DNA of 62,831 bases from positions 1-62,831 of the forward strand of contig CAMEKS010000003.1 in NCBI GenBank assembly GCA_945921465.1. The letters are read 5' to 3'. The position numbers were made by a program, and so were the translations under genes. This DNA is from an uncultured Clostridia bacterium. GTDB taxonomy: Bacteria; Bacillota; Clostridia; Christensenellales; UBA1242. Shown here piece after piece: positions 46,626 through 50,639 of this stretch. Each line of letters opens with the position of its first letter. Position 1 is the first letter of the stretch. The notes below the pieces were generated by a model. It did no database searches and was not told the origin of the DNA. It worked only from the letters and a program-made list of their open reading frames with translations.

Positions 46626-46961
46626 TTAGTTTTTCTTGTTATCGTTTATTGCTGTAATACCTTCAATTTTGGATACCGGCAAAGAGAAACACATTCCACG
46701 TCCAATTGTATCCAAATTGGTACTTTCACAAATTGCTTTCATTATTTTTGTTTTGTCGTCACTCTTAACCACTGTTAATACTATTTCTTTTTCTGGTTGA
46801 ATTGTAACACCTAAGAATTTTTCAGTTTCTTTTGAGTTAGAACTCAATGCATTAATTATTGTGCCACCAGTCGCTCCTGCTTCACGAGAGGCTTGAACGA
46901 CGTAGTCGCTGTATCCTTTATTAACTATTGTAATTATCAAATCATATTTTTTGTTGTTCAT
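46626..46961 (-). CDS. P-II family protein
   Basis: TIVNKG, AGATGGTII, QPEKEIVL, GRGMCFSLPV. Confidence 0.88.
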   Translation of the reverse strand: MNNKKYDLIITIVNKGYSDYVVQASREAGATGGTIINALSSNSKETEKFLGVTIQPEKEIVLTVVKSDDKTKIMKAICESTNLDTIGRGMCFSLPVSKIEGITAINDNKKN

Positions 46962-46977
46962 ATATAATCTCCCTTAA

Positions 46978-47340
46978 TTAGTAGTTAATTCCAAGAAAAT
47001 CTAACATTATGCTGGATGCCGAAGATGAAGGAATGGTCATTACTATACCTTTGCCAGGTTCTTCTAATTGTAATGCTGCATTAATACTTCCTATTATGCG
47101 GTCAGATTTGATGGGTTCTATTAATGACCAGACAATTTCTCTATCGACAACGCCAAAACCAAATATGTCTGCAGTTGCAGATTTAGCGGTGCCTTCACCC
47201 AGTGTGACTAGACTAAAAACAGCATCATTTTGCTCCAATATATCATATACACGCTTAGCGTTGCCTCTCTCTACAATTGCTATCATTAATTCAAAAGGGG
47301 CGGTTATACTTTTCTTTTTCATACTTTGTCTCCTATTCAA
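46978..47340 (-). CDS. P-II family protein, divergent (probable start 47322)
   Basis: AIVERG, GEGTA, DREIVW, PGKGIVMTIP. Confidence 0.85.
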   Translation of the reverse strand: MNRRQSMKKKSITAPFELMIAIVERGNAKRVYDILEQNDAVFSLVTLGEGTAKSATADIFGFGVVDREIVWSLIEPIKSDRIIGSINAALQLEEPGKGIVMTIPSSSASSIMLDFLGINY

Positions 47341-48850
47341 ATTCGATAATCTCTATATGAGTTGTAGCAGTTTTCTTTTTGCGAGGGTTGTGTCTCTTAT
47401 ATGCAAGCGTATATGCGGATCCAAGAATTTGCAGGCATAATATAGGCATAACGGCAATAATGGCTACTGTACCAAATCCAGTTGCTATTCCTGGTTCTAT
47501 TACGCTTGCAACGCCATTGATAAATGGCAAAATAAATGATACTGCCATAGCACCTGTAGCCGTGCCACCAGCGTCAAATGCAATAGAAGTAAATACTTGA
47601 CTATTATAGAATGATAATGCTATGCAAATAGTATAAATCGGAATTAAAAAAGCCAATAATGGAATATTATACAATGTCTTAAGCATTGCAAAGAATACTG
47701 ATAATGCTACGCCGATAGATACTGTAACTAGTATTGTTTTTTGTTTGATTTTGCCATTAGTTACTTCTTCTACTTGTTTCTTAAGTACGTGTATTGCTGG
47801 TTCGGCTGCGATAATAAAATATCCAAAAACCAAACTTAGTGGAAGTAATATCCAACTAAATTCGCCACTAGCGATTTGTTTACCCAAGATTGATGCAATT
47901 GGCAAAAAGCCTGCATTAACGCCTGTTAAGAAAATTACAACACCTATGTACATATATACCAAACCCATCACAATTTTTTTGATAGTTTGCTTAGACAATT
48001 TTAACATAGTAAATTGGAATATCGTAAATATAAGTGCTATTGGCAAAATTGTAATTGCAACATCCTTAAGATATTTTACCAGTGTCAAAATTAATGTTTT
48101 TGCCACATCGCCACCCATAGTAATTGCTTCAGTTGTAACGACTATGTTGGCCTCTCTAGGTAAAAACAATCCAAATATCATTGTTGCCAGTATTGGACCC
48201 AAAGATGATAGGGCAAGGTAGCCCAAGGCATCTGATGTATTGTCATTACTATGTGTAATAGAAGCAATTCCCAAACCAAATGCTATAAGAAATGGTACTG
48301 ATATTGGCCCTGTGGTCACGCTTCCAGAATCAAATATAATAGGTGTTAAATAATTAGGGACTAAAGGTGTCAGTACAAATAATAGTGCATATCCTATTGC
48401 CAGAATAATAGATAATTTAATGCGGAATACAACCTTAAGTATGGCGACAATCAAAAATAAACCTACGCCTATTGATACAATAGAAATAAATAAAAATTGT
48501 TGACTAAATATACCCATATCAGATATTTGTTCGGCTAGTACTGCTAGGTCAGGTTCTGCAAAAGTAATAATAAATCCTATAAAAGCAGAACAAATTAGCA
48601 TTAATGATAATTTCTTGCTCTTGCACAAACTTTTGCCTATGCTTTCACCCATAATGGTCATAGAGGAGTCTGTACCCAATGTAAATAAGGAAATACCAAA
48701 TAACATAAATATTGCACATATGCCAAACAAAATATATGCACTAAATGACATAGGGGATATGCATATCGACAATATCAATACTATAAAAGTAATTGGTAGT
48801 ATAGCGCCTAATGATTCTTTTAATTTCTTCATCAAATTTTTCCCAATCAT
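47333..48850 (-). CDS. DUF1538 double-domain membrane protein
   Basis: Two repeats with FAEPDL / AAEPAI and FDSGSVTTGP / FDAGGTATGA. Confidence 0.9.
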   Translation of the reverse strand: MIGKNLMKKLKESLGAILPITFIVLILSICISPMSFSAYILFGICAIFMLFGISLFTLGTDSSMTIMGESIGKSLCKSKKLSLMLICSAFIGFIITFAEPDLAVLAEQISDMGIFSQQFLFISIVSIGVGLFLIVAILKVVFRIKLSIILAIGYALLFVLTPLVPNYLTPIIFDSGSVTTGPISVPFLIAFGLGIASITHSNDNTSDALGYLALSSLGPILATMIFGLFLPREANIVVTTEAITMGGDVAKTLILTLVKYLKDVAITILPIALIFTIFQFTMLKLSKQTIKKIVMGLVYMYIGVVIFLTGVNAGFLPIASILGKQIASGEFSWILLPLSLVFGYFIIAAEPAIHVLKKQVEEVTNGKIKQKTILVTVSIGVALSVFFAMLKTLYNIPLLAFLIPIYTICIALSFYNSQVFTSIAFDAGGTATGAMAVSFILPFINGVASVIEPGIATGFGTVAIIAVMPILCLQILGSAYTLAYKRHNPRKKKTATTHIEIIEFE

Positions 48851-49003: not shown

Positions 49004-50158
49004 TTACATATCTCTAAGACTTTCAGGAGCAACATTTATTATTCGTGGTAACAATTCATTTATAATAGCGGTCTTATAAGTTTTGCTAGTGTGTAAAGTG
49101 TCAAAAGCCATTAGTGTTGAATTTTGCCCTGGAGCCACATACTTGCCCAAACTTATAATTCGCTTCATAGTAGTCAGTGTTTCTGGGCTGATATCGTCGG
49201 TTACTTGTCCTTTTATGTTATAATTAATAATCTTAAATATTTCGCTAAATTCGGTGATAATTAATAAAACCTGTTTTTCATAAACCACCATATTTTTTAC
49301 TTTTTCGGTTATTAATTTAAGAGTCTCGTATGATTTACTATATTCATCATCGATATTAAGATCATATATTTCTATTTTGCCGTCAGTAGTAATTCCGCTA
49401 GGCATATTAGAATTGGCATTAATCATTATCATATTTAATTCTGGGTTTTTTAATTCTTTGCAAAAATCTAAAGCGAATTTTCTAATATCGGTAGACTCTG
49501 GACACCAGAAGAAATTAGATGTCCCCTTAAAAATATCATATGGTGCAATATTTTTATATTTATTACAATCTAACTCTATTTTATCAAAATTGTTAGGCAT
49601 GGTTGGTAAGGAAAAGAATAAATTACGATTATATTCTTCGATATTTATGCCATTAATTTTTAATATATTATCTATTTGATATCCGTATGCGTTGACTAAT
49701 GGACGAGCGGATATAGTTAGTATATCGCCACGTTTTATATCATTGTCAGTTATGTCTCTCTTGGTCAATGGAATATTAATCATTTGACCCGACTCTTGTA
49801 TTATACGCAAGATAGGTGGTATATCTGGTTCAATTACTACCGCGCCTTCTAATATTTCTGGTTTGGCATTATAGTCACATATAGGTGCGTTAAGCCAAGA
49901 ATAACTAGAATATGATGTCTCGTAATTGTATTGAAAGTTCTTGCTAAGTGGTTTTCGTCCCATTTTATTCTCAACAGGCGTCTGTTCTCCTTGGCAGACT
50001 TTTAGTATCGATTCCACTAATTCTTGTTTTTTCTTAGTTGTAGGGGATTGTACTCCACAGCCTCTAGCTAGGCATCTTAGGTCATGGATGTCTAAATTGT
50101 TCAATCGATTAGTTACTTGTTCTAGAGTCTCGTTTTGCATATAAGCTCCTTTTCCCAA
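49004..50158 (-). CDS. Degenerate, ATPase-dead Rho-like protein (probable start ATG 50140)
   Basis: Rho_N-like LNNLDIHDLRCLARGCGVQSPTTKKKQELVESIL, OB-fold region, collinear ATPase-domain remnants without GKT or DERPEE. Confidence 0.8.
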   Translation of the reverse strand: MGKGAYMQNETLEQVTNRLNNLDIHDLRCLARGCGVQSPTTKKKQELVESILKVCQGEQTPVENKMGRKPLSKNFQYNYETSYSSYSWLNAPICDYNAKPEILEGAVVIEPDIPPILRIIQESGQMINIPLTKRDITDNDIKRGDILTISARPLVNAYGYQIDNILKINGINIEEYNRNLFFSLPTMPNNFDKIELDCNKYKNIAPYDIFKGTSNFFWCPESTDIRKFALDFCKELKNPELNMIMINANSNMPSGITTDGKIEIYDLNIDDEYSKSYETLKLITEKVKNMVVYEKQVLLIITEFSEIFKIINYNIKGQVTDDISPETLTTMKRIISLGKYVAPGQNSTLMAFDTLHTSKTYKTAIINELLPRIINVAPESLRDM

Positions 50159-50639
50159 AATTTCAACTTTGTTGTAATAATTTTAGCGAAAGTTAACGGT
50201 AAATAAACTCAAATAGCTGTTTCTATAAAAATGATATTAATTAAATTAGAATACGATTATTTATAACATTTTGTTATTAACTGACAAAATTACGAATAGA
50301 AGCGTAATAATATCAATATTGCATAAAATAATGTATTAGCCTATAATATCACCAATCGCATTGCAGCAAAATTGAAAATGCATTATAATAATATTGTAAT
50401 TTGTAAATTGATCTTGTAGAAATATACATACCGTTTTGTATAATATTGATTAATGTACGATATAGTATACCAAAAATATATTAATATAACTAATGTTTTT
50501 AGGCATTTGTAAATTATAATTTTATTTTTATTATGCTTATATCTATAGTTAACTCTTATTATAATTGTTTATACTTATAATAATGAACATAGTGAATTAA
50601 TTACGACACCAAAGATAATGAAGATTCATATATATCAAT

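Follow-up and report, generated by a model that had tools for sequence, protein, structure and literature searches.

A selectively maintained Rho orthologue with a dead motor in an uncultured Christensenellales bacterium

The 62,831-nucleotide stretch of DNA analyzed here (the window; contig CAMEKS010000003.1 of NCBI GenBank assembly GCA_945921465.1, from an uncultured Clostridia bacterium of the Christensenellales, UBA1242) carries on its minus strand, at 49004..50158, a single intact open reading frame (ORF) whose product is collinear with the termination factor Rho. Our analysis identifies the gene as a selectively maintained Rho orthologue in which the motor is dead; as its most likely role, we infer the ATP-independent binding of nucleic acids or RNA polymerase. 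The genome that holds it, referred to as G000, measures 1.17 Mb and is 94.75% complete. Relatives of the gene bear public names such as "hypothetical protein" or [quoted passage not shown]

An anatomy of lost catalytic parts

The frame extends from TTG 50158 to the stop codon TAA at 49004–49006. When the sequence is read directly, an AAGGAG box is found inside this TTG-started frame, 5 nt upstream of ATG 50140, so that TTG 50158 is not the start and the protein comprises 378 amino acids (aa), as does the publicly called product. An earlier note on this DNA, made from its letters alone (hereafter the original prediction), had described an intact frame of 384 aa preceded by an AAGGAG ribosome-binding site; the frame and the box hold, and the length is revised to the 378 aa that follow ATG 50140.

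The relationship to Rho extends over the whole protein. Pfam recognizes Rho_N (PF07498) at residues 13–48 with 32.7 bits against a cut-off of 24.9, and the NCBIfam model TIGR00767 aligns residues 17–368 with its positions 4–331 (E 1.8e-5), an end-to-end alignment that nevertheless leaves the cut-offs for functional Rho equivalogs unreached (TIGR00767, 23.8 vs. 509.45 bits; NF006886, 24.2 vs. 315). Against the PDB, phmmer pairs residues 250–362 with residues 213–331 of Escherichia coli Rho. In a comparison of profiles, hhalign aligns that of the window clade with that of canonical Rho over 347 columns at 99.1% probability (E 4.4e-19), and a profile built from 118 family representatives finds the canonical Rho proteins that related genomes encode, at 1e-60 to 1e-107. 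A monomer modeled by AlphaFold2 from the family alignment, with no templates, reaches a predicted local distance difference test score (pLDDT) of 90.3 and a predicted template modeling score (pTM) of 0.74, with disorder confined to residues 68–78. In a Foldseek search of the PDB with this model, the best 50 matches are all Rho, with E values down to 5e-16, and the model superposes on Mycobacterium tuberculosis Rho with a root-mean-square deviation of ~5 Å across ~300 columns. As judged from profiles and from the predicted structure, the gene is homologous to Rho far beyond chance, over its full length and with the same fold. The collinearity and the Rho_N helices claimed by the original prediction are thus borne out, the latter by the Pfam match and by three helices in the model, and the C-terminal half, for which a non-RecA fold would have spoken against that prediction, is Rho/RecA-like by model and Foldseek alike. 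Pfam also returns a weak Fan1_SAP match.

What the fold no longer contains is the machinery of an ATP-driven translocase. The correspondences given here are those on which a MAFFT alignment with E. coli numbering and the hhalign profile–profile alignment agree; the numbering of the E. coli Rho reference sequence was checked against well-known residue numbers and the PDB alignment. In Walker A, GQRGLIVAPPKAGKT has become GTSNFFWCPESTDIR (K181 to S216, G183 to D218, K184 to I219, T185 to R220), and no [AG]xxxxGK[ST] pattern occurs anywhere in the 378-aa protein. The segment of the catalytic Glu and Arg valve, LLIDERPEE, reads MINANSNMPS (D210 to N243, E211 to N245, R212 to M246), KAKRLVE..DVIILLDSITRL reads KVKNMVVYEKQVLLIITEFSEI, with the Walker B aspartate D265 replaced by T296, and PKRFFGAAR reads MKRIISLGK. 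The secondary RNA site has fared no better, as T286 of a Q-loop shortened by three residues is now D316 and K326 of the R-loop is T354. The chain stops at about E. coli position 345–350, so that F355, the Arg finger R366 and the C-terminal helices (~75 residues) are missing. Each motif substitution listed in the original prediction is reproduced in both independent alignments, as is its claim that the Arg-finger region is absent. Nor is this peculiar to one sequence, since Walker A and the C-terminal ~75 aa are missing from 18/18 genus proteins aligned. With the P-loop, Glu/Arg valve, Walker B, Q- and R-loop residues and Arg-finger C-terminus all gone, the protein can very probably neither bind or hydrolyze ATP nor translocate on RNA.

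The primary RNA site in the OB domain is likewise altered, with six of the seven residues checked replaced in the hhalign alignment (F62P, F64I, D78N, Y80P, E108A, and Y110G) and R66 kept. In keeping with these replacements, Pfam Rho_RNA_bind (PF07497) finds no match in the window protein, and the OB region that the original prediction called recognizable is so as a fold, by model and Foldseek, though not by sequence.

Conservation among the 118 representatives instead peaks at residues 13–65. The mean top-residue frequency is 0.64 at residues 21–40 versus ~0.25 elsewhere; within Rho_N, L21, R22, R26, G29, and P33 are conserved at 93–99% and K37/K38 at 72–73%, followed by P55 (81%), G61 (95%), and R62 (92%). 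Secondary peaks coincide with structural elements, in the OB fold (L-x-x-G-D) as well as in the RecA core. The family consensus after Rho_N, K-x-GRPPK (G 95%, R 92%, P 86%), corresponds to MGRKPLSK in the window sequence and recalls the AT-hook, in which a GRP core flanked by basic residues binds the minor groove of AT-rich DNA. Canonical Rho proteins in related families (G034, G036, and L039) have this GRPP motif after Rho_N as well, so that the N-terminal module is ancestral, and this is the part that survives. Small stand-alone proteins that combine Rho_N with a GRP motif are encoded in sister species (~93–102 aa; G005:C5:27480-27665, G016:C12:16577-16762, and G008:C34:9349-9504) and in a Christensenella metagenome-assembled genome (MAG; ~107 aa; L040:5965-6288); none was found in the window genome.

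Table 1. Features of the rho-derived gene in the window, with the evidence on which each assignment is based
Feature	Position	Strand	Basis
Coding sequence, motor-dead Rho orthologue, 378 aa	49004..50140	−	ORF list, called product, re-translation
Shine-Dalgarno AAGGAG	50146..50151	−	5 nt before ATG 50140
Rho_N helix-extension-helix, residues 13–48	49997..50104	−	PF07498, conservation table, three helices in model
GRKPL motif, residues 61–65, AT-hook-like; then disordered 68–78	49946..49960	−	Conservation; pLDDT <50 at 68–78
OB-fold domain, residues 93–165, homologue of the Rho RNA-binding domain	49646..49864	−	Model beta strands 95–162, Foldseek, residue mapping
Connector, residues 166–205; conserved F175 = Phe of ILFENLTP in E. 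coli Rho	49526..49645	−	Alignments, conservation
RecA-like domain without catalytic residues, residues 206–378; ends at ~E. coli 345–350	49007..49525	−	pLDDT >90, alpha/beta core, Rho top structure matches
Former Walker A/P-loop, KGTSNFFWCPESTDIR instead of RGQRGLIVAPPKAGKT	49481..49528	−	MAFFT, hhalign, re-translation
Former catalytic Glu/Arg-valve segment, INANSNMPSG instead of LLIDERPEE	49394..49423	−	MAFFT, hhalign
Former Walker B strand, VLLIITE instead of VIILLDS (D265 to T296)	49250..49270	−	MAFFT, hhalign
Former Q-loop, 3 residues shorter, T286 to D316	49181..49222	−	hhalign
Former R-loop, TSKTYK instead of TGSKMD (K326 to T354)	49073..49090	−	hhalign

Distribution, selection, and chromosomal position

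In its lineage the gene is not accompanied by any other Rho-family gene. A search of the window genome for canonical rho found none, and its single Rho_N gene is the one described here. The ATP-synt_ab model (PF00006) has zero matches in this genome and matches 14/14 control genomes, a gap by which the organism also appears to lack F-/V-type ATP synthase catalytic subunits and FliI. Canonical Rho is absent from 24/24 other genomes of the genus; 23 of the 24 carry an intact relative, an open frame of 366–442 aa with no internal stops, and the remaining one, without a match, is a 66%-complete assembly. Order-wide, 207/301 genomes score above the Rho cut-off, and within the family of the window (f1) zero sampled genomes do. 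When 111 genomes of the order are searched with the family profile, 107 show exactly one Rho-family locus, and not one of the 111 has the canonical and the degenerate form together. The sister genus g18 of the same family (0.8–1.0 Mb, 99–100% complete) illustrates how a survey may mislead, as it is Rho-free by the Rho model and holds an intact degenerate copy by the family profile. A different pattern is encountered in genus g4 of family f4, where six well-assembled genomes (G068, G126, G170, G221, G253, and G298) give no Rho-family match and congeners have canonical Rho; unlike the retained degenerate form, this looks like recent outright loss of rho. NusG is present in the window genome (G000:C10:22663-23160).

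Beyond the genus, the family is large and degenerate to varying degrees. A word-indexed protein search returned the query and one weak match, and three with a profile, and it was an exhaustive HMMER search that brought the family into view, as 303 clusters at 50% identity (E < 1e-3); a metagenome scan gave a single locus. The best 150 of the 303 clusters are mostly 330–470 aa long and nearly all lack the P-loop. Of the 118 full-length representatives, 84 match Rho_N, 66 Rho_RNA_bind and 16 ATP-synt_ab. Along the resulting series, genome G200 (genus g20) retains GKGQR, IDKRPEE, and LIIDD, other members of the genus to which the window belongs retain the OB aromatics and "ALPEE," and the window clade is the most eroded. 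Family f8 has kept GKT and the Arg-finger region and lost the catalytic Glu and the Q-loop. In its loci L071, L073, and L079 (genomes G031, G152, and G270), GKT and RVFPAID/Arg finger stand beside DER replaced by NAR or CGK and a deleted Q-loop, and G270 is also without the OB domain; other f8 genomes, some of the same genus, still have a near-canonical Rho. A 387-aa protein at L042, 5274–6437, in a MAG labeled Thermoanaerobacterales, combines Rho_N, GRGRPSR and a P-loop-less Rho-like C-terminal half, so that either the family may extend beyond the Christensenellales or the taxonomic label is loose. In the gene tree the degenerate forms cluster, but with many long branches, and the tree was not used to decide between single and several origins.

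Erosion of catalytic residues is not accompanied by the marks of neutral drift. The ratio of nonsynonymous to synonymous divergence (omega, from dN and dS) was obtained from the G005/G016 pair and from two strains of the syntenic sister species G017, since the nearest relative of the window protein is 38–40% identical, with dS saturated. For G005/G016, at an unsaturated dS of 0.60, omega is 0.106 overall and 0.126, 0.144, and 0.076 in the N-terminal part, the middle and the last 190 codons, respectively. The two G017 strains (dS 0.104, dN 0.0115) give 0.11, and 0.07 in the C-terminal part, alongside 0.126 for the adjacent alr and 0.07 for the adjacent DUF1538 gene. Among ~30 species examined there are zero internal stops, though synonymous divergence is saturated. 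The gene evolves fast yet, on these sequence data, is clearly constrained and not a pseudogene, and the view of the original prediction that function has been retained, rather than that the gene is decaying by frameshift or neutral evolution, is upheld in two clades, dead domain included. We are highly confident in the combined statement that the P-loop, catalytic Glu/Arg valve, Walker B, Q- and R-loops and Arg-finger C-terminus are gone, that purifying selection acts on what is left and that no canonical Rho accompanies it.

Its position indicates where the gene came from. G007 and G020, two sister species, have the degenerate gene directly after spoIIR, sleB, and ypeB; canonical rho, in three further families of the order, forms part of the arrangement spoIIR-sleB-ypeB-DUF1934-MBL-pyrG-rho-DUF1385-prmC. 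The shared spoIIR-sleB-ypeB slot suggests that rho was converted in place. In the window clade (G000, G017, G023, G009, G001, and G019) the gene is not at the ancestral position; it is flanked by alr and the DUF1538 gene, a local synteny that is perfectly conserved. In most other genus members it is convergent with an ORF of ~2,550–2,620 aa (L057/L058, from G020 and G007; L055, L059–L065). Relatives of this giant ORF lie ~19 kb off (G009, G001, and G023) or on another contig (G000:C30:1979-3937) in the window clade, where a block including alr-rsmD was apparently inserted between the two. Because of this separation, we reject for the window clade the idea that the gene and the giant ORF are functionally linked.

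Immediately around the gene, a 480-bp, very AT-rich spacer (50159–50639) separates it from the divergent alanine racemase gene (alr); on both strands of the spacer, sigma-70-like hexamer pairs are no more frequent than in shuffled sequence. Downstream on the same strand, after a gap of 153 bp in which no terminator-like hairpin was found, come the DUF1538 membrane-protein gene, two small genes, and recA. The first three of these, at 46626–48850 (minus strand), form a conserved cluster encoding the 505-aa DUF1538 protein, a 111-aa protein (Pfam P-II), and a 120-aa protein with no Pfam match, which may represent a transporter with P-II-type regulators and may be co-transcribed with the rho-derived gene. 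No link to phage or defense emerged, as PADLOC and tblastn against phages returned nothing and the sole PHROGs match, to the Rho_N region, was a small family of unknown function.

A proposed role and its rivals

These observations can be brought together in the explanation that the gene is the very rho of this lineage, which has turned in place into a pseudoenzyme that acts as an ATP-independent nucleic-acid- or RNA-polymerase-binding factor. Taken as a whole, we consider this explanation evenly balanced between being right and wrong. The working model for its action, which we rate somewhat below an even chance, is that such binding would be carried out by the N-terminal module, with the rest of the protein as scaffold. 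The three-part Rho fold of Rho_N helix bundle, OB fold, and RecA-like core would be kept; the active surface would be Rho_N with its conserved Arg and Lys residues together with the AT-hook-like GR(K/P)PK motif; and the OB and RecA-like domains would provide a folded, possibly oligomerizing scaffold. Transcription is a plausible setting, in which the protein might, for instance, wait on RNA polymerase, on nascent RNA, or on AT-rich DNA, as a passive modulator and not as a motor-driven terminator. Two published observations provide context: Rho hexamers that are open and inactive form "stand-by" complexes with RNA polymerase (PMC12360218), and E. coli Rho no longer binds RNA once its basic N-terminus has been deleted, according to a statement in Moreira et al. 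(2024; PMC11347177).

Several observations weigh against this explanation. Identity across species is 31–39%, compared to 55–85% for the neighboring genes, and the branches in the gene tree are three to eight times longer than those of canonical Rho; divergence faster than that of the neighbors implies a constraint looser than that on a core transcription factor. The window clade has lost the canonical OB pocket, and the GRKP of the window motif is without the GRP core of the textbook AT-hook. The protein is acidic (isoelectric point 5.3) and its N-terminal domain has a net charge of 0, both atypical of nucleic-acid binders. Without its C-terminal helices the protein may be unable to form rings, and the alr, DUF1538, and P-II context offers no functional hint. 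An RNA-binding scaffold, the first of the two functions put forward by the original prediction, is possible and is weakened in the window clade by the lost pyrimidine-binding pocket.

Acidity and a ruined RNA pocket are also what might be expected of a protein–protein scaffold unrelated to nucleic acids, for instance in sporulation or envelope biology, a role to which the ancestral slot beside spoIIR-sleB-ypeB and the convergent giant ORF of most genus members would lend themselves. However, the spore-gene neighborhood is simply the normal site of canonical rho in related families, the window clade has moved its copy next to alr and DUF1538 and away from the giant ORF, so that neither linkage is required, and conservation falls on the basic residues of a fold of the nucleic-acid-binding type; we regard such a role as unlikely. 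A slowly decaying relic, its function lost and its open frame heading toward deletion, would explain the very fast evolution, the graded degeneration from G200 to the window clade, and the existence of a few genomes without any Rho-family gene (those of f4 g4, G096, and G025). A relic would not, however, be expected to show an omega of ~0.1 in two clades, in its dead domain as elsewhere, to remain free of internal stops despite saturated synonymous divergence, to be kept in streamlined genomes of 0.8–1.0 Mb, or to yield a confident AlphaFold model, which makes this reading very improbable.

The two remaining readings fare worse still. The second function offered by the original prediction, a dominant-negative subunit of a true Rho, or more broadly a regulatory one that joins its hexamers, draws on a collinearity that could permit mixed rings and on the precedent of Psu and Rof, known inhibitors that lock the Rho ring open (PMC12360218). 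It presupposes a true Rho, which is lacking from the genome, the 24 congeners and the sampled family, and the two forms do not co-occur in the 111 genomes of the order; a rho hidden in the missing ~5% of the assembly is very unlikely given 24 Rho-less congeners. The proposal does not stand, and we accord it next to no credence. That the protein might still be an NTPase or translocase, through a non-canonical active site, could be argued from an acidic residue, E297, that follows the former Walker B strand in 5/6 clade members. With no Gly-rich loop, Lys/Thr, catalytic Glu, Arg finger, or adenine-stacking Phe, with such losses in 18/18 genus proteins, and with the ATPase domain model matching only 16/118 family representatives, this too is highly improbable.

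Significance and comparison with known systems

Rho is defined by a ring-shaped ATP motor, and a lineage is commonly recorded either as a carrier of Rho or as a case of its loss. The gene described here represents a third state, a selected, motor-less orthologue that has persisted over a long evolutionary time and in very small genomes, although everything needed to use ATP and, in the window clade, even the classical RNA pocket are gone; it also draws attention to a large family whose members would pass for Rho loss in genome surveys. Extended to its fullest, the argument would hold that entire families of uncultured Christensenellales-type Clostridia from gut and rumen have remade their rho, in place, as a factor that works without ATP and whose selected function lies in the Rho_N/GRPPK module, a generalization that we put forward as tentative and rather doubtful. 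If true, it would constitute natural evidence that Rho has a motor-independent activity valuable enough to be preserved in genomes as small as 0.9 Mb, and a new class of transcription or nucleoid factors would have to be recognized. The gene itself provides a natural separation-of-function allele in the dispute over useful Rho activity without translocation (stand-by and allosteric models). The claim is kept modest because the function is one that we infer.

The closest known system is canonical Rho itself (E. coli, PDB 1PV4/3ICE/5JJI; M. tuberculosis, 7OQH; TIGR00767/NF006886), with which the window protein shares descent, domain order, and fold; it is likewise the single Rho-family gene of its genome, and sister species carry it at the chromosomal site of rho. 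Unlike canonical Rho, it is without Walker A, E211/R212, Walker B, the Q- and R-loop residues, the ~75 C-terminal aa, and the aromatics of the RNA site. In its N-terminal part it resembles SAP/HeH plus AT-hook modules, in which a helix-extension-helix is followed by a Gly-Arg-Pro-type basic motif, with the difference that its motif is GRKP, not RGRP, and its binding is putative.

Catalytically dead subunits of ATPase families that are kept for structural reasons, such as the clamp-loader delta-prime and the non-catalytic alpha subunit of F1, are a further parallel, as there too a fold of RecA or AAA type is retained under selection after catalysis has been lost. Delta-prime and F1 alpha, however, partner active paralogues, and the window genome has no active partner to offer.

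Among sequences already cataloged, the nearest are the "Rho-like" ones of Moreira et al. (2024; PMC11347177), which have a single Rho domain, or Rho_N and the RNA-binding domain without a detectable ATPase, occur in 421/2,730 reference species, and are set aside there, where the ATPase is lacking, as non-functional Rho and dealt with solely in the supplement. Like that set as there defined, the window protein and its relatives present domain models with Rho_N only (in relatives also Rho_RNA_bind) and no ATPase domain. Unlike in that treatment, the "missing" domain here is present as a folded, selected, catalytically empty RecA-like core, and the gene is an orthologue rather than an extra copy. 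A literature search for ATPase-dead or degenerate Rho returned nothing relevant besides this category, and a 2025 review makes no mention of ATPase-less Rho-like sequences. The same paper, in a passage citing D'Heygere et al. (2013), describes type 4 Rho, a natural variant without Rho_N in which the motor is kept (PMC11347177). Both type 4 Rho and the window protein miss one of the three modules, and they do so in opposite ways, the window protein having conserved Rho_N most and dropped the motor.

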